DNA of 64,000 nucleotides from Dictyostelium discoideum (lineage: Eukaryota), in contig CM000150.2 in assembly GCA_000004695.1 (NCBI GenBank), positions 192,001-256,000 of the forward strand. The letters are read 5' to 3'. Below the pieces are notes generated by a model. The model saw only the letters and a list, made by a program, of their open reading frames with translations. It had not been told where the DNA came from and did not search any database. The position numbers and the translations under genes are program-made. This document shows positions 1 through 22,898 of this stretch, in pieces (position 1 is the first letter of the stretch; each line of letters opens with the position of its first letter).

Positions 1-89
1 AAACTCTTTTATGAAAATATCATTTTGATAATTTTCATAATTAATGTGGCTGAGAAAAAGAGAAAGTAAAGCAGGGGAAAACAGTATTT

Positions 90-139
<50 letters not shown>

Positions 140-305
140 TATTTTGTAAATTTTGATTATATTAATTTATACACACTATTTCATTACCAAAAAATACTTG
201 GCTATCGGAAATATAAACTTTAAGATTGTGGTTTTTTTCACCTTTTGAATAAATGGCTAAACTGTCAACTACTTTTGTTCTTGTGTTACTATCCTTATTA
301 CTTAC

Positions 306-624
306 CCATTTTGTTAACCTTGCAAAAATATTTTGACTGGTACAATCTTCGTTACTACCACCAGCTTGTTTAATTATTCCAGTAATAAAGAAATTTGAAA
401 CCTATTTATTTAAATTTATTAATTTTTTTTTTTTTTTTTTTAAAACTATTAATCTGGTAACATACATCGCCATCTGAATAGTATTTACTTTGACAAACTT
501 TCTGAAGACTTTCGTATTCCAATATGTATGTTACACGTGGGTTTGTGGCTATTTGCACTGTTTCTTGGATTGGTGGAACAGTTGGCCTTTGAACTCTTCT
601 AATTATTATTCTCTGGTTTTCCAT
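306..624 (-). CDS. Hypothetical protein, first two exons (466-624 and 306-401); the 3' part of the gene runs past the window start
   Basis: True ATG at 622-624. Exon A 466-624 ends at a GTATGT donor and exon B 306-401 follows a TAG acceptor, in phase. Exon B ends ...ARLTKW at a GTAAGT donor at 300-305. The protein MENQRIIIRRVQRPTVPP...SDGD/VSNFFITGIIKQAGGSNEDCTSQNIFARLTKW is not recognised. The first intron contains the ORF-track stop at 406. Confidence 0.4.
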
Positions 625-1022
625 TGGGTTTGGAGCATTTCAATTTCCTAATACATTACCTATTGACAAATTATTAACTGATTCATCTCCGATAGAAATA
701 TTATTGTTTGTTCTTCTTTGGATTGGTGATTGGTTAAAATCAGGTACATTACCATTTGGTGCTACACAGCGAAGAAAAAACCACCTTTAAATTCGCTTTA
801 AATTAAATTTAAATTTGCTTTAAAGTCCTGAATTAAAGCAATTTTAAAGGTAATTTTAAAGGTAATTTTTAAGGTTACTTTAAAATCACCTTAAAAATTA
901 CCTTTAAAATTACCTTTAAAATTACCTTTTTAATCGCTTTAAAAGCGAGGTCCTGAGTTCGAAGCCGTTATTTAACGGATAAATTTTTTAAAATTTTTTT
1001 TTTTAATTTTTCAAAAATTACC

Positions 1023-1090
1023 AAAAGGGATTCGATCCCCTGACCCTCTATTAAAGGGTAGTCTCATCAACCATTACACCATTTGATTGC
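1023..1090 (-). tRNA. Degenerate tRNA-like pol III unit (tRNA pseudogene or tRNA-derived element) with intact A and B boxes
   Basis: Minus-strand read: GCAATCAAATGGTGTAATGGTTGATGAGACTACCCTTTAATAGAGGGTCAGGGGATCGAATCCCTTTTGG. It has an A-box-like TGGTGTAATGG, a B-box/T-arm GGATCGAATCC with a T-stem AGGGG/CCCTT, and an anticodon stem-loop ACCCT-TTAATAG-AGGGT (anticodon AAT). The acceptor and D stems cannot be closed and the variable loop is 1 nt, so it is not a functional canonical tRNA. A T-run follows the T-arm. The retrotransposon begins 48 bp upstream of its predicted +1. Confidence 0.4.
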
Positions 1091-1122
1091 TTTGATGAAA
1101 ATTTAAAAATGATAGAATATTT

Positions 1123-1138
1123 TATCCCCATTTTTTTG
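1123..1138. repeat. Target-site duplication, left copy (tatccccatttttttg)
   Basis: The 16-bp sequence tatccccatttttttg lies immediately 5' of the element start (gagatcgaaaaaaac) and is repeated exactly at 3527-3542, after the element's terminal oligo(A). Confidence 0.7.
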
Positions 1139-1403
1139 GAGATCGAAAAAAACAAACAACAACAACAATCTCTTTTTTTGATTATTTCATTTTTCATATA
1201 AAAAAGACTTAAAAAACAAATAAATAAATAAATAAACTATTTTAAAAAGCCATCTTTTTACTTTATTGTAATTTATTATTTGTTTCGTTTTGAGAATTTT
1301 GCGTAGCAAAATTTTCAAAAAAAAAGCAAAAAATAATCAGATCGAAAAAAACAAACAACAACAATCTCTTTTTTTGATTATTTCATTTTTCATATAAAAA
1401 AGA

Positions 1404-1439
<36 letters not shown>

Positions 1440-1515
1440 GGAACCCAAGTTAATCAGAAAATTTCCAGATTTTTAACTTTTTAAAGAAAAATAAAAAAAA
1501 TAGAAAGAAAATAAG

Positions 1516-2850
1516 ATGAAAATCACAAACAACACCACAAATATTAAGCAACACAAATGCCTACAAAAAATAAGCGAAATTGTGGATAAAACTCAATTAA
1601 AAAAAAAACAATTCAAATACGTCATAAACATCAATCACGAACCAGACGATAAAATAAAAAAAGATTTAGAAAAAAGTTTGGACAAAAAAGATGTTTTAAT
1701 CAAAAGTAATAATACATTCAAAATTCTCACAGACAGTATTAGTACAGTAATCTATTTTGTAAATATGTTTGATGCAGAATTAAAAGGACAATTTATAACC
1801 ACTATAAGACCAAAAAATATGTATACAGATTTTGATTGGTATAAATCACTCACAGAAATAGAATGGGTAATAGAAAATGAAGGATGTAAACTAATTAAAT
1901 TAGAAATTAAAGGCGAAACTCTAATTATCAAAACAGTGAAAAGAGTCGTAGAAGAATTTGACACTATCATTGAACTAGACAATCTAACATTAATTGGACA
2001 CTCCAACAAAGGATGGAGAGATCAAACCTCATTACCAGAAAATCAAGAAGAAAACAAAAATAAAAAACAATCAGATGAACAACAACCACAATCTACATCA
2101 GAACAAATACCAAAACAAGGAAAAAGAACAATCATTATCCCACCAATCACATCCTCATCTAATGATAAAACATTTATGGCCCTAGATGATACAGCTCAAA
2201 AGGTAATAGAAGCATCACTAGAAAACGTAGATGAACTAACAAGAATAGAGAATGAGATCAATACACAATCGATAAACAATCAAGAAATTAAAACAAAATC
2301 AGAAAAACCTATCGAACCACCATCTCCATACAATACACCAATAAAACAACACGGCGAAACAAAGGGACTAACAACGGAAGAAAAACTTAGAGAGGCAAAT
2401 GATATCTTCGACTTCACCAGCCCAAACACTGATGCAATAAGAAAAATAGAATTCCCACTTTCAATCCCTTCAAATCAATGGTTCTTCTCCTCTCCAATAA
2501 AACATATCATGAGTTTCAGCCCAACCTATGGTACACCATCGAAAATTATCGATTCACCAAGTAAATTGTTAAACACACCAAAAAAGAAACAACAAGACAA
2601 AACAAACAAGACCAACAAAACACCAGTCAAACCAAAATTGGGTGAATATGGACAAAAAAGCATAAAAACAAAAATGGATGAAGATATAGACAACTTCAAC
2701 AAGGAAATTCTAAAACAAATCAATAAATCAAAAAACCCCACAAACACACAAGACCAACAACACAACGAACAAAGTAAAGATCAGTTAGAAGACAAAATAA
2801 ACCAGAAACTTCAAAAGGTAGATAAAAATCTACCCCAAATAAAACTATAA
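1516..2850 (+). CDS. Retrotransposon ORF1 protein (444 aa, TRE5-A ORF1-like)
   Basis: Intact ORF from a true ATG, a basic/Q/N/K-rich protein. It is positioned between the 5' modules and the ORF2 endonuclease start, and its size (about 51 kDa) matches TRE5-A ORF1. Confidence 0.65.
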   Translation: MKITNNTTNIKQHKCLQKISEIVDKTQLKKKQFKYVININHEPDDKIKKDLEKSLDKKDVLIKSNNTFKILTDSISTVIYFVNMFDAELKGQFITTIRPKNMYTDFDWYKSLTEIEWVIENEGCKLIKLEIKGETLIIKTVKRVVEEFDTIIELDNLTLIGHSNKGWRDQTSLPENQEENKNKKQSDEQQPQSTSEQIPKQGKRTIIIPPITSSSNDKTFMALDDTAQKVIEASLENVDELTRIENEINTQSINNQEIKTKSEKPIEPPSPYNTPIKQHGETKGLTTEEKLREANDIFDFTSPNTDAIRKIEFPLSIPSNQWFFSSPIKHIMSFSPTYGTPSKIIDSPSKLLNTPKKKQQDKTNKTNKTPVKPKLGEYGQKSIKTKMDEDIDNFNKEILKQINKSKNPTNTQDQQHNEQSKDQLEDKINQKLQKVDKNLPQIKL

Positions 2851-2864
2851 AGAAAAACACAATA

Positions 2865-3104
2865 AGAATAGGTGTTTGGAACATCCAAGGATCCAACACC
2901 ATCCAATCTGCCAGCATAATAAACACCGTTTTAGACAACAACAAGCTGGACGCAGCACTTCTAACTGAAACAAATATAAAAACAAATAAAATTTACTCAA
3001 TAAATCAACAATATAAAAACAAAATAACACACCACGCACCAATTGATAAAACAGGACAAGGGGTGTCACAAATCATCATCAACACCCGCAATAGAACTTC
3101 CTAA
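2865..3104 (+). pseudogene. Truncated ORF2 fragment holding only the N-terminal part of the apurinic/apyrimidinic endonuclease domain
   Basis: Translation is RIGVWNIQGSNTIQSASIINTVLDNNKLDAALLTETNIKTNKIYSINQQYKNKITHHAPIDKTGQGVSQIIINTRNRTS, carrying the VWN..G and LxETN APE motifs. It stops at 3102-3104 and is followed by a 54-nt oligo(A). No reverse-transcriptase domain is present. Confidence 0.6.
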
Positions 3105-3146
3105 ACATCTCAAAAAATACAATAATTCACTCAGTACTTTCTATAA

Positions 3147-3204
<58 letters not shown>

Positions 3205-3245
3205 CAAGTTAATCAGAAAAATAAAAAAGATAGAAAGAAAATAAA

Positions 3246-3446
3246 ATGAAAATCACAAACAACACCACAAATATTAAGCAACACAAATGCCTACAAAAAA
3301 TAAGCGAAATTGTGGATAAAACTCAATTAAAAAAAAAACAATTCAAATACGTCATAAACATCAATCACGAACCAGACGATAAAATAAAAAAAGATTTAGA
3401 AAAAAGTTTGGACAAAAAAGATGTTTTAATCAAAAAGACCCTGTAA
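3246..3446 (+). pseudogene. Duplicated 5' fragment of ORF1 (first 66 codons) within the same insertion
   Basis: Near-identical to 1516-1713 (MKITNNTTNIKQHKCLQK...KKDVLIK) and then diverges into the 3' terminal module. It is preceded by the leader aacccaagttaatcag, also seen at 1442-1460. Confidence 0.6.
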
Positions 3447-3526
3447 AAAAAAAAAATAAATAAAATGAGATCTAGCATCTCAAGGAGAAGCAAATAATAA
3501 TTGCGTTATCCAATTCAAAAAAAAAA

Positions 3527-3542
3527 TATCCCCATTTTTTTG
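3527..3542. repeat. Target-site duplication, right copy (tatccccatttttttg)
   Basis: Exact 16-bp repeat of 1123-1138, directly after ...gcgttatccaattcaaaaaaaaaa. Confidence 0.7.
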
Positions 3543-3958
3543 TTCTAAAATTAGATCTTTTTTATTAAAAACCTTAAATTTATGTTTAAAGGAAATTTAA
3601 ATTCACTTTGAATCTACTTTAAATCTACTTTAAATCCTATTTAAAATTAATTTAAAATAAATTTTAAAGGTATTTTTAAATATCTTAAAAATTATCTTAA
3701 AAATTACCTTAAAAATCACCTTTAAAATCACCTTTAAAATTGCTTAAAAAATTATTTTAAAGCAAATTTTAAAGGCATTTTTAAATATCTTAAAAATTAC
3801 CTTAAAAATTACCTTAAAAATGAATTTTTTAAACGCGGCTTTAAATTCAATTTAAATCCAATTTAAATCAACTTTTCTTTAAATTTGCTTTAAAGGTGCA
3901 TTTTTCTTTGCTGTGTAACCAATCATTTGGTACTACAAATAATAATAATTTATTATTT

Positions 3959-4984
3959 TTATTCATTTCCAATATAATTTTCTATATCCAGCATTATAGA
4001 ATAATCTTTCTTGTTTTGACACTGCATACTATCAGTGAATATTCTAAGTAAAACAATTTTATTTTTATTTTTATTTTTTAAATCTTTAAATTGTTGACCA
4101 CTTTTATAATTTGTATAAATTCCAGTTTCAAAATCTGTATCAAAATCTATTCTTTCAAAAAATTGCTTTTTATTTAATAAAGTTTCTAATACTTTTTTAA
4201 TTTCAAAATAAAAAATTGAGTGATCATAATTTTTATTTATAAATGTTTCTCCTTTTATTTGAAAATCTTCCATAAATAATTTATCCATATATTGAGGTGT
4301 GTATCTTATTTGATTTAAATTGGTTTTATTTTTGTCAATAAAACTTTTAAATTTTTCAAGTAGCTTTAAACTTATTGAGTTTTCAATTCCCAACATTAAA
4401 AATTCAATTTCAGTTTCATTTAATTTTTTTTTTGATTTTTCATTATCTAAATTATTATTTAGATTATTATTTATTGGTTCGTTTTGAGCATTTTCATTTT
4501 CATTATTTTCATTATTTTCATTATTAATGTTTGCTTCATTTTCATCTATTCTAATTTCATTGTTTTCATCTTCACTATGTACCAACCCAATTATATCATG
4601 ATTTTCTTCATTATCAATTGTTTGATTGTTTTCATTATTTTCATTATTTTCTTGATAAAAAATTTCATCTTGGTTTTGGTTACATAAATGTTTACATGGG
4701 TCATCTGGATCATTTGTTGGATATTTTATTTTTTCACCAGTAATATCCATTAATTTTTTATAAAAGCTATCTCTTTTTTGATTATTTGTAATAATTTTAT
4801 TTTGTTCATTTTTACATTTTTTGGTGTTGAAATGTCCATTTACATCATAAAATTGTTTATAAGAACGGTAATATGCAAGACAAAATGGACATATATTTTT
4901 ATGCATAATATAATGAATAATAATATTTTTAAAATTCTTTAATTTTTCTCTGCAATTAATGCATGATATGTTATTTAAATTCAT
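3959..4984 (-). CDS. Hypothetical protein with an N-terminal C2H2-like zinc finger and an acidic N/E-rich low-complexity region
   Basis: 341-aa ORF from a true ATG at 4982-4984. The motif CINCREKLKNFKNIIIHYIMHKNICPFC has C-x2-C...H-x3-H spacing. No introns were needed. Confidence 0.5.
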   Translation of the reverse strand: MNLNNISCINCREKLKNFKNIIIHYIMHKNICPFCLAYYRSYKQFYDVNGHFNTKKCKNEQNKIITNNQKRDSFYKKLMDITGEKIKYPTNDPDDPCKHLCNQNQDEIFYQENNENNENNQTIDNEENHDIIGLVHSEDENNEIRIDENEANINNENNENNENENAQNEPINNNLNNNLDNEKSKKKLNETEIEFLMLGIENSISLKLLEKFKSFIDKNKTNLNQIRYTPQYMDKLFMEDFQIKGETFINKNYDHSIFYFEIKKVLETLLNKKQFFERIDFDTDFETGIYTNYKSGQQFKDLKNKNKNKIVLLRIFTDSMQCQNKKDYSIMLDIENYIGNE

Positions 4985-5660
4985 TTTGTTTGCTGGCTGG
5001 AAATTAAAAATAATATTTTTTTTTTTTTTTTTCCTCGAGTTTTTACGTTTTTTTTTTTTTTTTTTTTCATTTTATTCAAATTTTAGCATTATAGCAAGTA
5101 GATATATGATTTAGTACTTAGAATTTTATATTTAGAGGGATATACCCCATTTTCAAAAAATGACGGGGAACCTATGACCCTGTCTATACCTTTTTCTTTT
5201 TAAAATATTAAAAAAAAAAACTATAAAATCTGCCCAATTTATTGTAAAACTACACTAATGCAATAATATACATGTGCACTCGTTAATTGTTTATTAATTA
5301 TAAAAAATAAAAAATAAAAAATCTTTTTTTATATGTATGTTTATACTTATAATATAAATATGCAAAACAAATAATTAAATTTTTTTTTTTTTTTTTTTGA
5401 TATTTTTCGCTTTTTGAAATGAGAAGTAAAATTTAAAATAACATAATATAAAACCCAAGGCAACTGAAACACTTATTTATTATTAATTAATAAAAATAAT
5501 AATAATAGAATTCAATTGCCACTGAAACAAATAAATAAAGAATTAAAATTAATTTGGTTATCTTTTTAGTTTTTTTTTTTTTTAATTTTCTTAATTTTTT
5601 TTTTTTTTTATTTTCTTATTTTTTTTTTTTTTTTTTATTAAATTTGGAATAAATAGTTAT

Positions 5661-5922
5661 TTTAAAGGTGCATTTTTCTTTGCTGTGTAATTTTAAATTA
5701 CATTAAAAATAACTTTTTTAAATTTATTATAAAGTGATTAAAACATTATTTAAAAACCGCTTTATAATAAATTTAAAAGGTCATTTTTAATATAATTATA
5801 AATGACCTTAAAAATATCTTTAAAATTACCTTTTTAAAAAGCAAATTTAAAGCCAATTTAAAGCAAATTTAAATTGTATTTGCTTTAAATTGGCTTTAAA
5901 GGTGCATTTTTCTTTGCTGTGC
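5661..5922. repeat. Further copy of the short AT-rich element: terminal motif tttaaaggtgcatttttctttgctgtg at both ends in direct orientation
   Basis: 5661-5690 tttaaaggtgcatttttctttgctgtgtaa and 5897-5922 tttaaaggtgcatttttctttgctgtgc, separated by about 200 bp of ttaaa/aaatt-rich sequence similar to the interior of the 761-3918 element. Confidence 0.45.
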
Positions 5923-6900
5923 AAAAATGAATAATAAAAAATACTACATACATTAGGTTTATTTTTTGCAAAGTCGGAAACAATATTCATATTTTCTTAC
6001 CAAAAGTTTGATTTAAATAAATAAATTTATTAATTGAACTAAGATTATCACTAAGATTTAATACATTTAAAAAAAAAAAATTAAAAAATATAAAAAAAAA
6101 AGTTTTTATTTTTTATTTTTTATTTTTTTTTTTATCAGGAAAAAAAATAAAACAAATAATAATAACAATACTAGTAATCAATATAAAATCAATAAATTTT
6201 ATTTAAATAGAAATGAAATATTAAAATTATACCACTAGATTTTTTTTTAAAAAAAAAAAAAATAAAAAAATAAAAAATAAATAAAATAAAAAATAAATAA
6301 AAAAAAAACAAGAAAAACCATCAATAAAATGACATTTAAAACAAAATGAAATTTCAAAGAGAATTAAAAATGAAAATTAAAAAGTATTCCTGTAAAAATG
6401 GAATTTAATTTTAATTTTAATGGTATTAAAATGTTATATCTTGATTTGATTGGTCACAGCAAATGATATAAAATATATTTCCAACTCGTTTTTCTTCAAA
6501 ATAAAACAATTAAAAATGAAAAATTATCAAACACTCCAAATTATTTATTATTAAAAAAAAATAAAAAAAAAATTTTAGGAAAAAGAATTATTTTAATTTC
6601 CATTATTTTAATTTTTAAATTTTATATAATTTTGTGTATTTGTGACTGCTCAATTTATCCTATTTATCTGATTTAGATTATTTTTTTAGGTTTAAAAATA
6701 TTTCTTAACACCAACCCAATTATTTATTTGAAATATTTGAAAGGATTTAAATAAGATAACAAACTTTGATCTGAACTGTTATTGTTATTATTACCACTAT
6801 TATTAAAATTGTTTGAATTATCTAGAGGCTACAAAGAATTTTTAAAGATTGAAAAAAAATTTAATATTCCTTCTATTGTTATTTCAAAAGTTGTAATGTT

Positions 6901-9216: not shown

Positions 9217-9375
9217 ATGTCTCTTAGCAACAACCAAACCCAATTCGTAACAGTTTTCGTTCCAATCCAATTATCAATTGATGTTTTCAGAAAAATGAAC
9301 AACATCAATTCTTTTGTTAATGACAACCTCACCAACTTTCCAATTGTAACTGTTGACCAACTTATCAAAGTTGTC

Positions 9376-9436
<61 letters not shown>

Positions 9437-10154
9437 CTTCAATTTCCAACAATGGCGACATCAACAATTGTTTGGCTACCTTTGAACAAGTCCAAAACAA
9501 TTGTTTTGAAACTTGTGATTTCAAGGCTACAGAAAGGGAGCATTATTTTGCCAGTGGCAAACAAATACAAGAATCAGTTTTGCCAGAAGAAGAAGAAGAG
9601 AAGATTTCCGTCAACAACTTTGCCATGGTTACCGTCGAACCAAACAATTGTTTTGTCAAGGCCCAACAAATTAACTCTGTTGCTCCATTGTCATTGGATA
9701 ATAGAAATTGTGTTAGAAGGGCTCACAGGGAGGTCAATACTTTTGTACAGGTGTTTGATGTTTGTGTTTTTAATCTCAAAGTTGTTAATGTTGCCACCAA
9801 TGAAAGTCAAGTCAATCTCTTTAATGGGGGCAATGTTGAAAACATTTGTTTTGATCGTTCTATACAAATGCCACGTTCATCAGCAGATGATTTTGATTGG
9901 TCGTCACAACAACAATCCTCTTGGTATTCACTTGCTCTCTCCATTATCCCAATTTATCATGAAATTATCATTAGTTCTTTGCAATTGGTTAGTAGTTGCC
10001 TTTTACAAGTATTGGCAGCATCAGCAACAAAAGCAACTACCTCCACATCCACTCAACATCATCGTTCCCAATGTTTCCAAAAGAATTGCTGTAAACCTCA
10101 ACAATCAATTAATAAGTCTTACCTTTACCAACTTCCTAAAAAACATCTTCTTCT

Positions 10155-10242
<88 letters not shown>

Positions 10243-11254
10243 AACCAACAACAACCAATTAAATCTTTCTAAAGAGATTTGTAATGAAAATCTCAATTTC
10301 GAAGAATTTAACTTTGAAGATGAAAGTGTATGCAAGTACAATAGATTGACAAACTCCTGTGAAAATATATCAAAAATACAACAAGTCAATGAGGAATCAG
10401 AATTACTAGATTGGTTCTCTGATTTTGAAGAAATGGATTCAGTTTTATTACAGAACGGAACCGAGTTTGACAATGATCACCCAATGGTAAAGTCACAGGC
10501 TCCATCCATTACTTTTAAGAGTTTGGATCAATTTATAAAATATTTAGAAGAGAATAACTGTGTTGATGATATCGAAGTTTCTCCATGCTCAAAGTCCCAT
10601 ACATTCAATAGACCAGTTTCAACACCACGTCTAATTATTAAACCAACATGGTGTGTCTATGGTGACTCATTAAATACTGAATTCTTCCACTCTTGTCTAA
10701 AGGATAAAACATGTGGTGATATTATTGTGGACCACTTTGAGCCATTGGTCTCCTCACCAACAGACTTTTTATTATCAAATGGTGGCCAAAGAATTTTAGA
10801 TACACCAAATGCTGGTGGTTCATCCGTTTGGTCAGAGGTATTATCATTTGAAGTATTAAATCAAGTTTTTGGTGCACAATTAAAGAAAACTGAAACTGAA
10901 ATTGAATATGCTCCAGGTTCAAAAATTACAGATTTCTCTGTTGATATTAACAATAGTCATATTGGAGTTTCTGTGGTAAGAATAATTAACTTTTTCGATC
11001 TCAATGGAAGAACGTACAAAGCTGTTTTCACACCAGAATATGCTCGAAATCTTTTGTACAAAAAGTTATTTGGTGTCATTGCCTCCACTGAAGCGGTTGT
11101 TGATAAATGGGAAAAACAAATTCTTTATGTTTGGACTACATCTTCTTGTGTCGCCGATATAATTGTTCAAGAATATTGGAAAGTTCCAGCAAAGTTAAGA
11201 TCAAATACTTTAGTTTATGTTAATCATGCAACAAACTCTGAATTTTTATTTTAA
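9217..11254 (+). CDS. Hypothetical protein read in two frames: frame 1 at 9217-10272 (polyN and polyQ tracts) and frame 2 from about 10275 to 11254. Either a frameshifted single gene or two adjacent genes
   Basis: Frame 1 (351 aa) is protein-like throughout and ends in a 36-codon (CAA)n polyQ plus NQQQPIKSF. Frame 2 is junk-like before about 10270 and protein-like after it (EICNENLNFEEF...PGSKITDFSVD...VYVNHATNSEFLF). No phase-consistent GT-AG intron links them, because the only candidate (10091-10274) creates a TAG. No family was recognised. Confidence 0.5.
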
Positions 11255-11418
11255 TAATAAAAAATAAAAAAAATAAAAAAAATAATAAATGTACATTTAA
11301 AATTTAATAAAATAAATATTTATTTTTTATTATTATTATTATTGTTATTATTATTATTATTGTTATTATTATTATTTATTTTTATTTTTAATTTTTTTTT
11401 TTTTTAATTTTTTTTTTT

Positions 11419-12415
11419 TTAATTAGACATTGAGATAAATAAATTCATTAAACGAGGTAAGATATTACCAGACATTGGGAAATCTATTTTACCAGCAAAC
11501 AAAGCAATACATTGAGTTCTAGATTGAAGATCTTGAATGGTTTGTTTACGACCAGCAAATAAGGCACTACGATTAGTAAATTCGTCAAAGTTATTTAGTA
11601 AATGGTATTGTTTAACAATGATGTCAACGTATGCTTGAATGATAGAAGAGAAATTTCTAGTGATATGTGGTGAAAGGAAACGATAATCTTGTACCTTTGA
11701 ATCGATTTCTGATTCAGAGATTGGTAAGATTTCCAAATTTTCAATCTTTTGAATTGCCTCTTGATACTTTTCTTTGTTGTATAGGTCAAAGAAATCGCAA
11801 AGTTTCAATAATTGCTCAAAGGCTAAATAACTGGTTCTTGCTGTTGAGGTTGTTTTTAATCTACCTTGATAATCATTGAATAATTGCTTACCAAATTGAT
11901 ATAATTGATCTCTTTCACTTGAAATTGAGGTTAATAATACCGATATTCTACTATTATAAATCTCTAAAACTCTTGGATACTCTTCAATCATAATCCAAAA
12001 TTCAATTGCACTTTGATATTCATTCTTATTCTCTAATTCCAATGCTGATTGTTCTATAATAGTTCTCCATTGTTGTTTATTTATAAATTCCTATTAATAA
12101 GAAATAAAAAATAAAAAATAATTTTATTAGTAAGTCTATTTTTTTTTTTTTTTTTTTTTTTTTTCAAAAAAATTATCCACAATTTGGAATACTTACAGAA
12201 AATAAAGATAATTCATGAGCAAATTTAAAACCATTTGGAGATGATACTACAAGTTCAGAAATTTCTTGGATTTTAATATCATTATCAGCAATTAAAAGGT
12301 AATAGAAAAAAGCCTCTCTATTCTCTTCAAAGGAAAATATTTTTGTGTATTGTTTAATCATTTCTACCAAATGAATTGATTTGGAAGTTTGATCGTAAAT
12401 TTCTTTTTGTTGTTC

Positions 12416-12453
<38 letters not shown>

Positions 12454-13013
12454 GATTTTGTTGGTAAGTCATAGTGTTTGTATTGGTGGTGCTTTTATTG
12501 AATTTATTGATTTCATCAACATGTTTATTATTGATACCACTATTTGAGGTTCTCAAAAGTTTATAATAATCTAATGCGATTGCTAAATGTAAAGAATCAT
12601 CGGGACAAAATTGATAAAGACTAACGATTGCATCTTCAAATTGTAACGATACCAAAAGTAATTGAAATATTTCCAATGTTTCATAGTTATTTCTATTTTT
12701 TTCAATTGAATTTTTAATATCATTTTGTAAGGACTCTAACAATGAAATCGCTGAATCATTAGTTGGTTCAATGGTGATTCTTTCCCTTATGAAATTTAAT
12801 CTCCACCAAATATAATCTTGAATAGATGTGATCACTTGTTGTTTTGTTGAGTTTGGATCATTACAAGATAAAAGATTAAATACAGAGATCTTAAACACAT
12901 CTTTACTCTCTGTTTTAGCTGTATTAAATTCTCTAGTCATTCTATCTCTTTGGTCTTTATTTATTGATGTATTATTAGTAGTAGTTGGTAATGAAGATTT
13001 TTGTTGTTGTTGC

Positions 13014-13050
<37 letters not shown>

Positions 13051-14329
13051 GCTGCTGTTGTTTTTCTTTAAAGATTGGTGATAAAATATCGAAATAACGA
13101 GATCCACATTTTTCCAATGCAAATTGGTATGCCTCTAAGGTATAACCACTACGTAATAGATAGTAAATGATACACCAAATGGAACAACCTTCATAAATTT
13201 CATCAGAACTATCGGTTAATGGTGATTGATTCAATGACTTGATATATGCCACAATAATATTCAGTGGTAATGATACATTTGAATGTTTTGGTAAACGACT
13301 TTCAATTACTTGACTAAACTGAGTCTCTAAAAATGAAATAGATCTCTTTAATAATTGGGCCATAGTTGGTTTTGTGTGATATTTTGTATGTTTTTGAAGT
13401 TCTGTTAATTGTTGTTGTTTTTGTTGTTGTTCCTTTAATTGAGGTGTTTGTTGTTGTTGTTGTTGTTGTTGTTCTTTTAATTGTTGAATATAATTTGTTG
13501 TATCGATTTCACTTGTTAATGTTAATAATAAATTCCAAACATGGGTTACTATAGTAGTGGCAGTATTTGTATTAATTCCACCACCAATATTAATATCTGT
13601 TGAAAGACAGGCATCCATTAATCTATGAACCAATGGGAAACCATAAGATTTTGATTGATCTGCCATGTGAATATCATACTCTTCAATTATACTTGCATAC
13701 TTTTTCATTTTATCTGATAATTTAGTTCTATCTTCATTCTGACCAGTTTGTCTTTGAGAATATATACCACCACCACTACCACCACCAACTCTACTTATAT
13801 TACCACCAATTGAGATTGTTGATGAACCACCAAATTGAGATTGTTGACCATAAGTAGGACGAACACTTTGACCCATAATACTTGAAGATAATCCACCACG
13901 AACGCTTTGTTGAAATAATGATGATGATGATGATGATTGATTACTAGCGCTAGCACCACCAACACTTGGTAAAACTTTAATATGTTTTTGACCTAAAATC
14001 TCCTCTAAATATTTTTTATCTCTATTCCAATCATGAATTGATGTTTGTTCATAATGGGATTGAAACTCTTTTGATGTCTTTTTTTGAATGTCACAAATTG
14101 TATTCAAAATGATATTCTCAAATTGAACCTTTAAATAACCATCAATATCTGTTGGTACTGATTGAACATCTGTGAATGATGATGTATTGATATTAGATAA
14201 ATTCTTTGCTAAAACTTTTGGATCTAATCCATATTTTCTATTAATTTTACTATTTAAATAAAAAATAAAAGGTAAATGAGAAAATTTAAAAAATAAATAA
14301 AATTTTAAGTTATTATTATTATTATTATT

Positions 14330-14362
<33 letters not shown>

Positions 14363-14582
14363 CTTACGAATCTTGAAATACATTTGGTTCCAATGGATTT
14401 GAAAATGGAGTTTTTGATGAAGTTAAATCATTCAATTGTTTTGATGTATCACCAATCTCTTGTAGATTTCTTTCAATGTTGAATGATGATAACCCAATTG
14501 GACTTGAAAATGATGATATTCTATTGATTATTTGATTGGATTTATTTGATAAATCATTAAAATCCATTTCCTTTACATTCAT
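11419..14582 (-). CDS. nup93: Nucleoporin Nup93/Nic96: exons 14368-14582, 12197-14249, 11419-12090
   Basis: Introns 14250-14367 (GTAAGT...TAG) and 12091-12196 (GTAAGT...TAG) are in phase, and the total is a multiple of 3. Remembered conserved Nic96 blocks match: SIWCIIYYLLRSGYTLEAYQ against yeast IWALIFYLLRAGLIKEALQ, HLAIALDYYKLL against HLAIGLASLKLF, and the C-terminus TQCIALFAGKIDFPMSGNILPRLMNLFISM against ARQCMIYAGMIQYRMPRETYSTLINIDVSL. PolyQ insertions are present. Confidence 0.85.
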
Positions 14583-14836
14583 TTTTTTTTCCCTCCTTTT
14601 TTATTTATTTATCATAAATGTTGGGTTAATAGTTGAACAACACTTTCCAAAAAAAAAAAAAAAAAAAAAAAAAAATTAAAAAATAAAAAAATAAAAAAAT
14701 ATGAAAAATTCAAAAAAAAAAAAAATAAACAAAAATAAAAATAAAAAAAAACGAATTTTTTTTTATTTTTTTTTAATTTTGAATTTTTCATATTTTTTTT
14801 TTATTTTTTAATTTTTAATTTAAACAAACAAATAAA

Positions 14837-15171
14837 ATGAACGGTGGAGCACCAACAAAGATTGCAAATTTTCTTCATAAATCAATTGTTTCAGTATTAG
14901 CACTCACATCATTAGGCTGTGGTGTTTTTGTTATCAGTGCAACTGCTGATTTATTGGAAAGAAGAAAAGTATGTATACTTTACTTTTTTTTTTTTTTTAT
15001 TATTTCTATTCATTTTTATTTATTATATATATTTAAAATTATTAACCTCTATCAATTCAATAGAAAAGAAGGGAAGAAGAAGATAGAATTATAAATGAAT
15101 TTATTGAAAATGATAAAAAAAGAATTTTAGAAGAAAATTTAAGACAACAACAACAGCAACAACAAAAATAA
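14837..15171 (+). CDS. Small single-pass membrane protein (about 79 aa): exons 14837-14968 and 15064-15171
   Basis: MNGGAPTKIANFLHKSIVSVLALTSLGCGVFVISATADLLERRK, then after a GTATGT...caatag intron at 14969-15063, KRREEEDRIINEFIENDKKRILEENLRQQQQQQQK. The join is phase 0. There is one predicted TM helix and a charged C-terminal tail. No family was recognised. Confidence 0.45.
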
Positions 15172-15267
15172 AATATTATTGGAAGAATATTTATTATAAA
15201 ATGTGTAAATAAATGGCTTTGGTATGATTTATTTCATTCCCACCAAATATCTAACTTCTATGTATAG

Positions 15268-15304
<37 letters not shown>

Positions 15305-16099
15305 TGTAATTCAAAATAGGATATATCTATTTTAAGAAAAAAAAAAAACATTTAATTTTTTATTTAAATCTATTCAAGCGTTTTCCAACTTTTTTTTTTT
15401 TTTTTTTTTTGTGAGTTTTTTGTTTTTTGTTTTTTTTTTATTTTTATTATTTCCCATTTTTCAACGTTACACATTTCCAACATTACACTCACACAAAAAA
15501 AAAAGATAAAAAGAAATGCACACAAAAAAAAAAAATAAAAATAAAATAAAAAAGAAATATCAACATTACACTCACTCAAAAAGATAAAAAATCACCTGAT
15601 TGCTTTATTTTGTAACACTTCTTAACACAACCATCTTTTTATCTCTACATAAATCAACTTTTTCACAACATTTTGATATTATGGAGACAAACTTGGAACG
15701 TCAACATCAACATCCAGTGTGTCAGTATTTTAATTTTTATGCATCCAAATCACTTACTTTGGGGAATCCATTGATTTCACACTCAGACAGCACAAGAAGA
15801 ATAGACATACACTGTTTATCAAATTCAATAGAAGTCTCTTTAAATTAATCAATTTGAAGATGATGATATTGAAAAGGATAAGGATATTTCAATTGCACCA
15901 TCAACATCAGAGTTAATATTTAAATTACCCGAAAATTAAAAATTAAATTGAAATAAAAGAAAAATAATAATCTATTTTTAGAAAAAAAAAAAAAAAAAAA
16001 ACAAAAAACAAAAAAAAAAAAAAAAAAAAAAAACAAAACCAATTTTTTTTTTTTTTTATTTTTACTTTTTTCAAAACACAATTAAGAATTTCAAATAAT

Positions 16100-16200
16100 A
16101 TGTCTGCAGACTCTAAAAATCAAAAGAAAGTTCTTTTTGTTTGCTTAGGAAATGTAATAATTTTAATACATTTTTGTTTTCTAAACCATTTCTAATTTTT

Positions 16201-16232
<32 letters not shown>

Positions 16233-16442
16233 TTTGTCGTTCCACTATGGCAGAGATTGTGCTCAGAGGACTTGTCCATTCAAGAGGAATTTTAGATGAT
16301 TTTCAAATTGATAGTGCAGGTACTTCTTCTTATCATATTGGAGATACTCCTGACCCAAGAACAGGTGAGTGTTCAAAAGATTTTATTAAAAAAAAAAATA
16401 AAAAATAAAAAAAGTAGAAATAAAAATGGGTAAATGGTCTAA

Positions 16443-16477
<35 letters not shown>

Positions 16478-16842
16478 AATTATATAAAGTTCAATCATGT
16501 AATCAAAATATGGGCAGGGCAATATCAGAGGAATCATTGAAACACTTTAAATCGATTCCTTTACATAGAGCAAGACAATTTACAGATGAAGATTTTAGTA
16601 AATTTGATTATATCTTTGCAATGGATGAATCCAATTTATCAAACATTAAAAAAGTGTTGAAACACTCCACCACAAAGGATAATCATATTGCAACCATTAA
16701 AAGATTAGGTGAATATCACACACATAAAAAAATTAATGTAGAAGATCCTTACTATGGTGATATGTCAAATTTTAATATTTGTTTCAATCATGTTCACGAT
16801 TGTTTGGTAAATTTTTTGAAAGAAATAGAATCTTTAAATTAA
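16100..16842 (+). CDS. Low-molecular-weight phosphotyrosine protein phosphatase (LMW-PTP/ACP1 family): exons 16100-16153, 16232-16364, 16490-16842
   Basis: P-loop signature VLFVCLGNICRST and the DPYYG motif. The splice-junction residues RTVQSCNQNMG align with human ACP1 RGQSCMKRHG. Introns are 16154-16231 (GTAATA) and 16365-16489 (GTGAGT). Total coding length is 540 nt, 179 aa. Confidence 0.85.
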
Positions 16843-16944
16843 TTATTGGATTCTATTTTTTTGTAATAAAATTATTATTATTATTATTTTTTGTATAAAA
16901 TTATTATTGTCTTTTTTTTTATTTTTTTTTATTTTGTTTTTTTT

Positions 16945-17681
16945 TTAATGTTTTGGTGGTTTATAACCATCAACTGTCATATTTCTTGATGCACTTGGTA
17001 ATGTTACCTCCATACCTTCTAATTCTTTAGTTAGTTTAATTTGACAACCTAATCTAGAGCTTTATTTTTATTATTATTTTTATTTTATAATGTTAACATG
17101 TGTTTTGAAATTAATTAATTTATCATTAGTTTTTATTATTTTTTTTTTATTATTTTATTTTTATATATATTTTTTTTTAAACATACTTTTCTTTGAGTTG
17201 AAAAGCTAAATCCAACATATCATTCTCTTCATCAGTTGGTTCAGGTAAAATATTATAAATTTTTGGTTCTAAATAAACGTGACATGTTGAACATGCACAT
17301 GAACATTCACAAGCTCCTTCTAAATCAACATCATTGTCATGTGCTGCTTCCAATATATTTTTACCAACTTCTTCTGTAACTTTGGTTTTTGATCCATCTT
17401 TATTTATAAATGTAAATGTAACTCTTTATATTTTTATTATTATTATTATTATTATTATTTTTTTTTTTTTTCAATTATAATTTAAAATATTAAAAATTAG
17501 TAAACGATAAAGAAATTCTTTATCAAATGATTACCAACCATTGGTAGACATACTTATTATCATTGCTACTTGATGAAAATTGTCTATATATTATTCCATT
17601 TGAAAATTTATTTTTATTGTTTGTAATTTTGTTGAATCTTTTTATGTTATTAAAACATACTTGTTTAAAAATTTGGTTCAT
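16945..17681 (-). CDS. Mitochondrial adrenodoxin-type [2Fe-2S] ferredoxin (Yah1/FDX2-like): exons 17554-17681, 17187-17423, 16945-17059
   Basis: Exon 1 is a presequence-like [42 protein letters not shown]. Exon 2 is [53 protein letters not shown]...[11 protein letters not shown], and exon 3 is [38 protein letters not shown]. It has the classic C-x5-C-x2-C...C cluster and the RLGCQI motif. Introns have GTATGT donors and are phase-consistent, and the total is 480 nt. Confidence 0.85.
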
Positions 17682-17930
17682 TGTGTTGTTAAAAATAAAT
17701 AAAATATAAAAGATAAAAAAAAAAAAACTGAAAAAAAAAAAAAAAAAAAAAAAAAATGAAAAATGAAAAATGAAAAAGAATCTTCGGTCAAAACAACTAA
17801 TTAATTTGTATTCGTTTTTGAAAATATCAAAAAAAAAAAAAAAAAAAAAAAAACAAAAAAAAAAATATTTACTCCTTTCGTTGTTTTTTCAAATAAAAAC
17901 ACTCATTTCCAAATCTATATTAAAAAAATG

Positions 17931-17972
<42 letters not shown>

Positions 17973-18205
17973 TTTTTGGCATTAAATAAAAATTAAATAA
18001 TATACCTATTCATTGAAATTATTTGATTTATCTTTAAAATGTTTCAGGGCAACACTATTGATAGAATTAACCAATATTAAGAAAGAAAAATTAGTGGAAA
18101 TAGATGGTGATAAACGTTTTAAATATCTTGAAAACTAAAAAATAAATTAAAAATCCAACACTTTTCGTAAGAAAATAGGGGATTAAAAAAAAAAAAAAAA
18201 AAAAA

Positions 18206-18243
<38 letters not shown>

Positions 18244-18355
18244 TTTCATATTTTTTTTAGTTTCTAATAAATTTTATTATAATTAAAATTTTTTTTTTTT
18301 TATTTCTTTTATTTTTTTCATTTTCCCAAATTATTAATAGGTTTATTAATTTAAA

Positions 18356-19190
18356 ATGAAGATATATGAAAATGATAAAGGAAACATAACGATTGAATGG
18401 GATATAATGATAAAAGAAATGTTTGATTTTATTGGGTTGTATGACCATGAAACCAAAGTGATAAATGATTATATTGGATATTGGAATATTGGAGGATATC
18501 AAGGTAATGGAATCAAAGATACAGGTATAGTTTGCGATAGGAATTGTAGTTATTATTTAAAATATTGGAGAGCAGTCGAAACGAATTCAATCAAGAGCAC
18601 AACACCATCAATTTTCAGTTCACCATCAAACTATCAGTTGATTGAAATCGCTACACTCAAAGGTAATCCATCAATTAGTATATCAGGTGAACCTGGTGAA
18701 CCATTATTGGTTAAATGGTCACACTCTAATTGTAGTAATGCAAATAATTTCATTGGTATTCACAATAGTACAAATTCATTACCTCATAATGCTAATAGAT
18801 ATTTAGATTGGTGTTATGCTAATAAGTTCAATGGCCAATTCAAATCCAAATTAATAAATAGAGGTTTACCTTATTATGCAGTTTTATGGGCAAAAGTAAA
18901 AGGTAATCAAAAGTTCATTCCATTATCAATATCTTCAAAATTAGGTCCTTCTCCAAAAAGATTATCAATCGTTGAAGCTTATAATACAAATGAAGATCAT
19001 GCTCCGTTATCAAACTCCATCAATTTAAATATTCGTTGGCATAATTACCATTATTATCATATTCATGATTATGTTTTTTTATCAATAAATAAAAACATTC
19101 ATATCAATTCAAATGATAATAATTCAAATAATAATAATTCAAATAATAATAATTCAAATGATAATAATTCAAATGATAATAACTCAAATG

Positions 19191-19270
<80 letters not shown>

Positions 19271-20554
19271 CAAATTGAAAATAAAGCACTCTCTTATTTA
19301 ACTGGTGAATCATTTCTTATTAAAAATTATTCAAATGGAGTTTGCGAAACTTCTTATCAATTAAAAGGTTTGGATGAGAGTGAGGATTTTGTTGCAAATT
19401 ATTGCAGTTATAGTTATGAAGAAAAAAAATTTACATTAATCGAGCAAAGGATGTTTAAAGGTAAACTTTTATTTATTATTATTATTTATTATTTATTATT
19501 ATTTATTATTATTTATTATTTTAAAATAAATAAATAATAAAATATAAAAAAAATAATTACTAATTTTATTAAACATTTTCTGAAAATATATTGAAAAAAA
19601 AAAAAAAAAAAAAAAAAAGAATTTTCAAATTGGATGTCAATTCATTGGGAAAAGATAAAAAATAAAATGGTAAGGGAATTAGTTATACCAGGAAGTCATG
19701 ATGCAACAACCTATGGAATTAATTCATCATCTAAAAGATCACCAGATTATAAAAGCCCAAATTTTACACCAGATTTAATAATTTCAAAATGGTCAAAAAC
19801 TCAAAGTGCAACCATTTATAAACAATTACTATTTGGTGTTAGATATTTCGATTTAAGAGTAGCACCATATCCAACAACTGGTGAATTATGGACAATACAT
19901 AATATGTTTTCAGTACCAATCTCTGAAGTTTTGGATGACATTGAAAGATTTATGAAAAATGGACCAAAAAGAGAGATTTTAATATTACATTGGAACCATT
20001 TGGATTATCTCTCCAATGAACAACATGTCCAACTACAAACTATGATAAAACAAAAACTTTCTCCATTTATGGCTCCAAGATCATTTGGTAATGATGTAAC
20101 CGTACAACAACTAGAACTTACTCCAATAATAAATGTTTATGATGATGGTTTCAGGAAATTGGCAGAAGAATCACAACCTGCAAAAAATGACACCATAGAG
20201 TTTGAAACATTCTTTTGGTATTTTCATCAATCATTACGTTCAAGTTATGAGACTAAAGAGTATCACACTTCAAAAACTGTCATTAAATTCCTTGAAAGAG
20301 AGATTGAAAAAAATCATTCAACATTTTGGGTTCTACAATGTATCCTAACAGTAAATTCTCAATTAAACTTTAATAATGTCCTTAAAATAGCAAAGGATTC
20401 TTTGTTTAGCTGGAATAATTCTGAAATTCCAACCTTTTTAAACTTTTTGGATAAATTGGAAAGAAATCAAACAAAGTGTAATATTATAATGACTGATTTT
20501 TGTACTTTTATGGATGTAACACAATATGCAATTAGAAGAAATATTTCTTCATAA
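18356..20554 (+). CDS. PI-PLC X-domain-containing protein (PLC-like phosphodiesterase): exons 18356-19460 and 19620-20554
   Basis: Exon 2 carries the X-box start NWMSIHWEKIKNKMVRELVIPGSHDATTYG (IPGSHD motif). The intron 19461-19619 (GTAAAC...AG) runs through (TTATT)n and is phase 1. Exon 1 is a 368-aa Cys/N-rich region with a polyN/(SNDNN)n tract. The total is 2040 nt. Confidence 0.7.
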
Positions 20555-20711
20555 AAAAAAAAAAAAAATACTAAATATATGTTTAAAATTTGTAAATAAA
20601 CTATGGTTTTTTTTTTTTTTTTTTTTTTTTTGCAATATCAAATTATTGTTATTTTATTGTATAATTATTATTTTTGAAAATTAAAAAAAATTAAAAGTAA
20701 GATTGTATATT

Positions 20712-22898
20712 TTATTTTGATGTATTAAAAACTCTTTTACCAGATCTTGGATCCACTGTCATACCATAATTTAATCTTTCTCCATGAGTTACAGTTGTAC
20801 TTGATGAAGCAGAAGGAGAGCATTTCATACAATAGTCTTTTTGGTCAAGACGAACAAATTGAGTACCAGTGATTTGACTTTTACATTTGAAACAATTGAC
20901 ACTTGATGAAGATGAGGATGAGGATGTATGTTTTTCATTATCATAACAAGATTTATGATATACTTTACCAGCAACTTTTAAAATTGAGCCCTCAATGATT
21001 GGTTTACTACATTTGGCACAATGATCAGTTGTTGTTGATTGTTGAATTTTAATTGAACATTTTTGACAATATGGTTTTTTATCATGAGGAAAGTATCCAG
21101 TGAGTAAAGGGGCATTACAAGATTTATCTGTACATTTGAAGCAACCTTTATGATAGAATGAATCGAAAATTTTAGCCACTTCTCCATTCAATGGTTTAAC
21201 ACATACAACACAACGATCACTATCAAGCCATCCAGAAGTAATGAATGGTGAACCACCTTGTTTTGGTTGTTTTTGATTTCCACTTGTGTATTGATTCAAT
21301 TGACTTGCACAAGGATTACAAAATGGTTCATTATCAACCTCTGTGAAATCTTCTTTCAAGTTTTTACTACAAGAATAACATTTTAAACAATTTGGATGAT
21401 ATGGTCTGTCTAATGCTTCAACTGATGAACCTGAAATTGGTTTTTTACAATCATGACAATTCTTTGATGATTTGTTATTATTGCTTGAACATGGACCACA
21501 TAATGGATTACCTGTAGTTGGTGATTTTTTGATTTGATCATTTTGATTTAAATTCTTATTACAACTATCACATTTGAAACATTGAGGATGAAAATTTTTA
21601 TCCATTACACTGATGGCACTACCAACCAACTCTCCATTACATTTACCACAAGTTCCATCTTTTTCATGAGGAGTACAATATTTATCTCTATCATCACCAT
21701 ACTTTTTAGTTTTATTGTCAACTGGTTTATCACACATTTTACATGAGTCTGATTTCTTTTTTGCTAATGGAGAATTAGAGTTGGTGGTGGTGGTGGTGGT
21801 AGTTGGTTTATTATGATTATGATGGTGATGATCATGACCATCTTTATCCATGACTTGCTTTGGTTTATTTCTATCTTTTGCACAAGGTTCACAATATTTT
21901 GAAATACCCTCTTCATAATATCCATCTTCTAAACTTTTACCACAAGATTTACAAGAACAAGAATCACAAACCTTTTTTCCATCTTTTACTTGGAAATTAC
22001 CAATTAATGGGTCATGACATAAATCACAGATACAACTTGTACAATATTTCTTTTCTTTATCATTTTCATCTGGTACATAACCTTTTTCTAAAGAACCAAA
22101 ACAACCTGAACATTTATTGTTGTTGTTGTTGTTGGATTTGTTTTTTCCTCCTGATGAATTATTTGACCCTCCTAAATTTGTTGCACCCAACATACAATTT
22201 TCACACCAAAAATTGTTTGATTCTTGGTAGAATTTCTTTTTTGGATCCAATTTACAACTACAAGAACAACAAACTGCACAAGAAGTATGGAATTGTTGAG
22301 TCATTGTTGTCAAGTAATCATTATTTGTGATGGCTTTTTTACAAGCAGAACAATTCATACCTTGGAATTTTAACAAATCTAATTGTGGACCTTTATAAGT
22401 TTGTGATGCTCTTGCTGCTCTACCTAACCAATATAGTGTAATTGCGATCTATTTTCATTTTTTTTTTTTTTTTTAAGATTTTTTTTTTTAGTGAATGTTT
22501 TTTTTTTTTTTTTTTTTTTTTTTTTTCAAACATAGTTTTCCAATTTTCATAAAATAAAATTTCTTTATAATTACATTTCTAATTCTTATACTTTCAAATA
22601 AATCTTGAGATTCAAATAATTGAGTATCACGTAAACCCATTGAATGTTTGGCTGATTTAATAAATAATTGGATATTTTCTCTCTTTGCAAAGTCAGTTGA
22701 TGGAGATTGGTTATATTTTGGAACAGAATTTGGTTGGATTTGATTTATTAATTTACATAAAAAGATACCATCTCTTAAAGAACTTTGAAAGTCTGATGGA
22801 AACTTTTGATTGATTACTCTCTCTATCCAATCTCTGGATTCATCTAAAGCCAATTCCAAATTAAATGCTGAAGTTGATGTCCAATTTGCTTTTATCAT
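20712..22898 (-). CDS. CH-LIM protein (N-terminal calponin-homology domain followed by multiple LIM zinc fingers; ChLim-like): exons 22592-22898 and 20712-22390
   Basis: Exon 1 is a CH domain: WIERVINQKFPSDFQSSLRDGIFLCKLINQIQPNSVPKY...TQLFESQDLFE. The intron 22391-22591 (GTATAAG...TATAAAG) joins in phase to an exon full of C-x2-C-x16-20-H-x2-C-x2-C-x2-C LIM units, from CSACKKAITNND to C-terminal Cys pairs. The track start at 22376 is a TTG, not an ATG. Confidence 0.7.

Follow-up and report, generated by a model that had tools for sequence, protein, structure and literature searches.

In a 64-kb window of Dictyostelium discoideum DNA (CM000150.2, positions 192,001 to 256,000; AT-rich, with 24% G+C), positions 1139-3526 are occupied by a copy of the retrotransposon TRE5-A.2. 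We are confident that it inserted approximately 50 bp upstream of a decayed tRNA-derived unit with an A box and a B box, that this unit lies within a mobile terminal-inverted-repeat (TIR) element, and that the insertion produced a 16-bp target-site duplication (TSD) with the 5' end of the retrotransposon facing the unit. We directly observed the TRE5-A.2 identity, one insertion with a 16-bp TSD, and a distance and orientation typical of tRNA targets beside a unit that keeps only RNA polymerase III (pol III) promoter features. Unless a comparison locus is named, all positions refer to the window, by which we mean the whole 64-kb stretch.

The inserted element is a complete TRE5-A.2 copy

The insertion has the layout A-B-ORF1-ORF2 remnant-B-C-oligo(A), where ORF stands for open reading frame. 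Its parts are listed here with the basis for each.

1139-3526 (+), TRE5-A.2, a non-LTR (long terminal repeat) retrotransposon; complete non-autonomous copy of 2388 bp (identity to seven copies, ORF1 primers, modular structure)
1139-1338 (+), A-module, the promoter module; exactly 200 bp by computed length, matching the published 200-bp A-module
1339-1432 (+), second A-module copy, partial, 94 bp (direct repeat D7, 1149-1236 versus 1345-1432)
approximately 1433-1722 (+), module holding the ORF1 start, or B-module (repeat analysis, self-BLAST)
1516-2850 (+), ORF1, intact, 444 aa (open reading frame, multi-copy homologues, primer matches)
2841-3101 (+), N-terminal remnant of ORF2, 87 codons (translation)
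3143-3202 (+), long internal A-run marking the ORF2 deletion (sequence)
3203-3435 (+), 3' copy of the B-module, duplicating the 5' B-module and the ORF1 start (repeat D3, self-BLAST)
3436-3526 (+), truncated C-module with an A10 tail, 91 nt by computed length

Repeat D3 pairs 1485-1705 with 3215-3435 at 99% identity over 221 nt. The published TRE5-A.2 structure is AB-ORF1-BC, with a 200-bp A-module, a large deletion in ORF2 and a C-module cut to its 3'-terminal 87 bp (PMC3159450). Positions 1139-3526 agree with TRE5-A.2 in modular structure, ORF1 sequence and ORF2 deletion, as well as in position, orientation, TSD and oligo(A) tail.

The original prediction had called the insertion TRE5-A-like, and this is borne out by the ORF1 primer matches, the fit of the modular structure and an ORF1 that belongs to multi-copy D. 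discoideum proteins. ORF1 is 98-99% identical to a multi-copy protein set of strain AX4, and its exact sequence is that of AX4 proteins EAL60657.1 and EAL68829.1. All of its homologues are annotated as "hypothetical protein"; since those annotations are uninformative, we set the identity by published primers. The TRE5-A ORF1 quantitative reverse-transcription PCR primer Rep-109 matches exactly at 1960-1988, and ORF1 primer Rep-108 matches at 1621-1647 with a 1-nt indel (both from PMC4559204). The ORF2 primers Rep-75 and Rep-176 from the same paper (PMC4559204) have no match in 1139-3526. Pfam searches with ORF1 and with the ORF2 remnant returned nothing significant. The remnant is identical across all comparison copies, and a homologue search with it gave a single match, a 123-aa protein from D. 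cf. discoideum. The fetched comparison loci contain no full-length TRE5-A.1 ORF2.

Those loci (L001-L006) were fetched via the identical ORF1 and hold seven further copies. All seven are full length and 99.0-99.4% identical to the window element, with a TSD of their own of 13-17 bp at each. Across the window element and the seven copies, the only differences are A-run lengths and three single-nucleotide polymorphisms (SNPs). At 3143-3202, the A-run of the window copy exceeds that of each of the seven by approximately 20 nt; this excess may be either a true length polymorphism or long-read homopolymer compression. At L006 (9427-14570), a tRNA-Lys(UUU) gene has two tandem TRE5-A.2 copies upstream of it. 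The first copy has an extra A-module and its TSD abuts the second copy, an arrangement that shows repeated use of one tRNA target, as in the literature.

The insertion is a single event at a site that is empty in another strain

The insertion is bracketed by two copies of the same 16-mer.

1123-1138 (no strand), 16-bp TSD, left copy, TATCCCCATTTTTTTG (repeat family D11)
3527-3542 (no strand), 16-bp TSD, right copy, TATCCCCATTTTTTTG (repeat family D11)

The 16-mer TATCCCCATTTTTTTG has exactly two occurrences in the window, flush against both ends of the 2388-bp insertion. We compared this region with the orthologous locus in another D. discoideum assembly (GCA_054883475.1, CM142508.1; here L007). 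Window positions 1-1138 align with L007 3246-4374, and window positions 3527-4993 align with L007 4359-5825. The two L007 blocks overlap by exactly 16 bp (4359-4374), which is one TSD copy. Once the insertion is taken out, the window and L007 show 100% identity over the host element and its flanks.

The exact 16-bp TSD had been taken as the mark of a single event, and we agree: the insertion is one retrotransposition event with a 16-bp TSD, because the orthologous L007 site is empty and carries one TSD copy. The empty site that the original prediction had proposed looking for was thus present in L007 as joined flanks with one TSD copy, and two paralogous copies of the host element in comparison locus L005 are also empty. 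Each of those two empty copies contains TATCCCCATTTTTTTG once, so the 16-mer belongs to the host element rather than to a simple repeat. With two occurrences in the window and one per empty L005 copy, the concern that the TSD might be part of a common simple repeat can be set aside. The insertion is polymorphic between strains. It is also recent, since it is absent from the orthologous L007 site and nearly identical to other active-type copies.

The target is a tRNA-derived unit that is probably decayed

Upstream of the insertion, on the minus strand, lies the unit that we take to be the target.

1018-1088 (-), tRNA-derived unit, the target (sub-threshold RF00005 match, A and B boxes, two hairpins)
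1071-1081 (-), A box TGGTGTAATGG (exact fit to the D. discoideum consensus TRRYNNARYNG)
1028-1038 (-), B box GGATCGAATCC (one deviation, A54, from GTTCRANNC)
1043-1059 (-), anticodon-like hairpin (5-bp stem, 7-nt loop with T33 and a purine at 37)
around 1028-1038 (-), T-arm-like hairpin with a 5-bp stem, its loop carrying the B box GGATCGAATCC
1023-1026 and 1013-1017 (-), T4 and T5 runs just downstream of the unit (sequence)

We took type-2 pol III promoters to consist of an A box TRRYNNARYNG, a B box GTTCRANNC at a distance of 30-60 bp from it, and a T-run terminator after the boxes. The unit has all of these sequence elements, with one deviation in the B box, and is a candidate promoter of this type. 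The earlier description of both boxes as intact holds without reservation for the A box; the B box is kept, with one deviation. At position 54 of the B box (GATCGAATC) there is an A where the consensus has a T, and the A-to-B spacing is 33 nt. The A54 variant also occurs in a genuine tRNA-Arg(UCU) gene at L001 that itself has an upstream TRE5-A. The A-box consensus is loose, with 69 matches in the window, and the unit is the only A/B-box pair with tRNA-like spacing in the 64 kb (0.2 expected in shuffled sequence).

A search of the whole window with ARAGORN yielded no tRNA. RF00005, the tRNA model of Rfam, aligned end to end at 1018-1088 on the minus strand in a focused scan, with 12.5 bits versus a gathering score of 29; a wider Rfam scan gave no tRNA match at E ≤ 10. 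The minimum-free-energy fold contains only the anticodon-like and T-like hairpins and is no better than those of shuffled sequences (z = -0.34). By inspection, three of the seven acceptor pairs form, the D stem is unable to pair and the variable region is 1 nt. The unit did not pass as a functional tRNA gene. The original prediction of a non-canonical target with unpaired acceptor and D stems is upheld by the ARAGORN negative, by the RF00005 score of 12.5 bits versus 29 and by the two-hairpin fold. The tRNA origin of the motif is visible in its anticodon-like and T-like arms and in the weak full-length RF00005 match. From its sequence, the unit appears to be a decayed tRNA-like module and not a working tRNA gene.

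A reading of the unit as a functional, expressed pol III gene serving the cell or the host element, as an unusual tRNA-like small RNA or a SINE-like (short interspersed nuclear element) promoter module instead of a decayed relic, can appeal to the retained A and B boxes and two hairpins, and to the T4 and T5 runs, which resemble terminators and follow directly after the unit. Both boxes are also invariant in five copies of the host element, with three substitutions between them, and Barth et al. mention that the motif may have a part in the replication of DDT-B (PMC9012585). Against this stand the lack of an acceptor stem and a D stem and the fold z score of -0.34, and five copies are too few to support a claim of selective constraint. 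We regard a functional gene as unlikely and favor a decayed module that has kept its promoter boxes.

We also considered a box C/D snoRNA (small nucleolar RNA), given TGATGA motifs near the unit, and rejected it: the Rfam hits were insignificant (E > 1) and there was no matching D box. A second tRNA-derived fragment lies in the host element at 945-975 on the plus strand, convergent with the main unit (GCGAGGTCCTGAGTTCGAAGCC). It has 12 nt (TCCTGAGTTCGA) in common with the T-arm of a tRNA-Pro(UGG) gene at L003, and its B-box-like sequence GTTCGAAGC at 957-965 agrees with the strict consensus. No A box was paired with the 945-975 fragment in the motif scan, and no TRE lies upstream of it.

Distance and orientation match those at tRNA genes

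The +1 position of the unit falls at 1088 both when the A box is set at +8 and when the 5' end of the Rfam alignment is used; the inferred +1 is an A. The element therefore starts 50 bp upstream of the unit, which corrects the earlier figure of 48 bp. This distance is the outer edge of the published window of 47 ± 3 bp, which takes in 59-85% of natural and experimental TRE5-A integrations (PMC5391098).

The 5' end of the element faces the minus-strand unit head to head, as originally predicted, and the same arrangement is seen at the five comparison loci with real tRNA genes. Of the six loci that share this ORF1, these five have a canonical tRNA gene encoded on the opposite strand, and its +1 is 46-48 bp away from the element's 5' end. 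The orientation of TRE5-A integration is reported to be invariant (PMC9012585).

The unit resides in a mobile TIR element

Both the unit and the retrotransposon lie inside an element approximately 770 bp long, with TIRs starting in CACAG, arrays of subterminal repeats in both arms and a short non-coding body.

765-1138 (+), host TIR element, left arm, with terminus CACAGCGAAGAAAAA and 11-12-bp subterminal repeats (inverted repeat I7)
3543-3915 (+), host TIR element, right arm, with terminus ...TTTTTCTTTGCTGTG (inverted repeat, copy alignment)
763-764 and 3916-3917 (no strand), 2-bp TSD of the host element, TA (flank comparison)

This host element was found at four loci, one in the window and three as full copies in L005, in addition to the L007 orthologue. 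The four copies have differing flanks and are bounded by the 2-bp duplications TA, CA, GT and TC. A paralogous segment in L007 keeps the empty site of one of the L005 host-element copies (TTATTGGGAAGAATTT); the filled counterpart in L005 reads GGGA, element, GAAG (...TTATTGGGA, element, GAAGAATTT). The paralogous empty site indicates that insertion of the host element was precise, with a 2-bp duplication. With its TIRs, its TSD, its presence in several contexts and a precise empty site, the host element has the properties of a generic cut-and-paste element resembling miniature inverted-repeat transposable elements (MITEs). No transposase was identified for it.

The host element is probably a short derivative of the DDT-B transposon, judging from the published description of that family. 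The unit occupies nt ~254-324 of the host element and the TRE insertion follows nt 374, positions consistent with the DDT-B description, in which the motif lies within nt 1-428. A literature search for further descriptions of DDT-B led to Barth 2022 only.

Two more right-end termini of the host-element family occur in tandem orientation at 5640-5924 of the window, ending at 5687 and 5921; the stretch 5695-5924 is a copy of the right arm (3701-3918) diverged by ~75%. These termini, which are also in L007, are solo or degenerate ends of older insertions. We ruled out a longer host element extending to the right-end copies at 5673-5921, given that the four loci share the ~770-bp unit and have distinct flanks.

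The left arm also contains a near-perfect hairpin at 833-942, built from the subterminal 12-bp repeats, with arms at 835-881 and 882-928 that are 91% complementary. It gives sub-threshold Rfam matches to MITE-derived microRNA (miRNA) families (mir-548, 42.6 bits versus 90, E = 2.6e-6). Since transposon-derived miRNAs are known in D. discoideum, from thug-S (PMC4894637), this hairpin could be a Dicer substrate.

The same site was hit a second time in a paralogous host element

One of the L005 host-element copies has a TRE5-A.2 at the same site as in the window. This filled copy differs from the window copy by its flanks, by a CA instead of a TA duplication, by three SNPs and by a 12-bp indel. 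The junctions of its insert also differ, with 2 nt fewer on the 3' side and approximately 6 extra T on the 5' side. Non-templated 5' nucleotides are typical of TRE5-A (PMC5391098), and the 2-nt difference at the 3' junction is not of the kind produced by homopolymer error. Comparison of the two sequences thus points to the L005 TRE5-A.2 as a second, independent hit of the same site. We considered whether the filled L005 copy could be the window locus itself and rejected this on its different flanks and 2-bp TSD; the true orthologue is L007.

In L005 the host-element family is clustered within 12 kb (9247-21335), and the end of this 5.58-Mb chromosome record is 20-40 kb away. The cluster consists of the filled copy, the two empty copies, one solo end (14713-14853) and one fragment (19621-19921). 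The last 2 kb of L005 are paralogous, at 95-98%, to the sequence immediately upstream of the window locus (L007 2513-3474). This suggests that two chromosome-end regions share a segmental duplication, or else that the assembly has a break.

A filled paralogue raises the question of whether the host element could have been copied to this position as a composite that already carried TRE5-A.2. The route would be DNA transposition, or else ectopic gene conversion with a filled paralogue, for example that in L005, as the donor. A second host-element copy with TRE5-A.2 at the same site is what such copying would leave, and no SNPs distinguish the window and L005 inserts. However, the L007 orthologue is empty, with the same flanks, the same 2-bp TSD and a 100% identical host element. 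The filled allele largely sits on the empty haplotype with flanking markers unchanged: the window and L007 have private SNPs in common (85-95 bp away on the left side of the insertion, ~75 bp on the right), and the L005 copy does not have them. That the window copy keeps its own SNPs 75-95 bp on either side argues against gene conversion from a filled paralogue. The host copies differ by three SNPs and one indel in 766 bp whereas the 2388-bp inserts differ by none, the opposite of the co-divergence expected of a composite, and this argues against composite movement. The 5' and 3' junctions also differ between the window and L005. We consider composite copying very improbable here, and favor direct insertion of TRE5-A.2 into a resident host element.

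It is harder still to credit a chance landing, or a preference for AT-rich DNA or T-runs, with the adjacent A- and B-box motifs being coincidental. The target sequence does contain a T7 run, the unit is not recognisable as a tRNA, and the A-box consensus matches often, as noted above. Chance would nonetheless have had to place the element beside the sole A/B pair with tRNA-like spacing in 64 kb, at a distance and in an orientation that agree with five genuine tRNA-associated copies, and to hit the same site twice in different host-element copies. De novo integration at the A/B-box motif of DDT-B has also been published. Targeting through the A/B-box unit accounts for the insertion far better.

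A proposed course of integration and the points against it

By analogy with published work on TRE5-A (PMC5391098, PMC9012585, PMC3159450), targeting at this locus may have proceeded as follows. The A and B boxes of the unit would load TFIIIC, which would position TFIIIB upstream. The TRE5-A pre-integration complex would dock on TFIIIB via the ORF1 protein, which is reported to interact with TFIIIB (PMC5391098, PMC9012585). TRE5-A.2, a type of element that the ORF2 protein of TRE5-A.1 mobilises in trans, would then have inserted by target-primed reverse transcription.

Several points weigh against our interpretation. The 50-bp distance is 2-4 bp longer than the 46-48 bp seen at the five comparison loci. 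The B box has A54 and not the consensus T, a variant that it shares with a genuine targeted tRNA-Arg gene. Neither Pfam nor the homologue search linked an APE or RT domain or protein to the ORF2 remnant. Long-read homopolymer error could explain part of the junction differences between the window and L005. The link between the host element and DDT-B depends entirely on the published description, and occupancy of the unit by TFIIIC and TFIIIB would follow solely from two independent TRE5-A insertions at the expected distance.

A broader possibility, which we offer as speculation and think somewhat doubtful, is that short mobile TIR elements (probably DDT-B derivatives) carry a tRNA-derived pol III module that still recruits TFIIIC and TFIIIB, such that each transposition seeds a landing pad for TRE5-A. 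If so, a DNA transposon would be spreading retrotransposon target sites, and the recurrent, strain-polymorphic TRE5-A hits would be the read-out. The DNA element itself might also benefit from the module, which could act as a chromatin boundary, take part in replication or give rise to a small RNA.

Other features of the window

Between the host element and the extra element ends lies a 341-aa ORF (3959-4984, minus strand) with N-terminal Cys/His motifs (CINC...H...H...CPFC). It has no Pfam match and is called as a gene in L007. Exact-protein look-ups of this ORF, of a 736-aa ORF and of protein P0001 found no match. The rest of the window consists of ordinary genes, including those for Nup93, an FtsH-type protease, MutS, a PARP, a permease and an AMP-binding enzyme.

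Comparison with known systems

The window copy is in all substantive respects a TRE5-A.2 element (formerly DRE). It has the same AB-ORF1-BC organisation, 200-bp A-module, ~87-bp C-module, ORF1 primer matches and oligo(A) tail, and differs by approximately 20 extra A in the internal A-run and by a target that is not a tRNA gene. Its 16-bp TSD lies within the reported 10-16 bp, and known copies likewise turn their 5' end towards a pol III promoter and integrate ~47 ± 3 bp upstream of it.

The host element resembles MITE-like elements of the CACTA/Mirage type, which have CAC... termini and 2-3-bp TSDs: it shares CACAG TIRs, subterminal repeats, a non-coding body and a 2-bp TSD. Unlike the host element here, those families are not known to carry an internal tRNA-derived pol III module.

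The closest published parallel is DDT-B, a DNA transposon with a consensus of 5471 bp. Barth et al. (2022) described a rearranged DDT-B fragment (within nt 1-428 of the consensus) whose A/B-box motif has a natural TRE5-A.2 at a distance of 46 bp on its upstream side, and reported a de novo integration of tagged TRE5-A at the DDT-B A/B-box motif (PMC9012585). As here, TRE5-A.2 lies ~46-50 bp upstream of an A/B box within the first ~430 nt of a DNA transposon. In our case the host, present at four loci, is a ~770-bp TIR element that is complete at both ends, and it is likened to DDT-B by description only. The DDT-B paper (PMC9012585) does not call the motif tRNA-derived, whereas the unit described here shows a tRNA origin.

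Targets outside tRNA genes were known before that report. Spaller et al. (2017) found that TRE5-A integrates at A/B-box loci without tRNA context (PMC5391098). An isolated B box is a weak TRE5-A target (PMC5391098), and isolated B boxes as targets go back to Siol et al. 2006, as cited in PMC5391098. The A/B-box loci in ribosomal DNA (rDNA) are, like the unit here, non-tRNA targets set by pol III boxes, with integration ~47 bp upstream of a reference point 7 nt ahead of the A box (PMC5391098). Those rDNA loci have no tRNA similarity beyond the boxes, have a G at +1 and lie on a multicopy extrachromosomal element (PMC5391098). In contrast, the unit here is chromosomal, visibly tRNA-derived, has an A at the inferred +1 and sits on a mobile DNA element.

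According to the original prediction, the target is defined by pol III promoter elements and not by tRNA function. This is correct but was already established (Spaller 2017, PMC5391098; Barth 2022, PMC9012585), and the locus is an instance of a known phenomenon. The empty orthologous site, the exact TSD and the second independent hit together make it a clean natural confirmation that what TRE5-A reads is the architecture of pol III promoters and not the identity of a tRNA. It adds detail to a one-paragraph observation in the 2022 micropublication and leaves the understanding of TRE5-A targeting unchanged. Added here are the visibly tRNA-derived character of the motif, a complete short TIR host with 2-bp TSDs at four loci, two independent natural hits and strain polymorphism. 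In practical terms, the locus is a natural substrate for tests of TFIIIC/TFIIIB occupancy outside tRNA genes.

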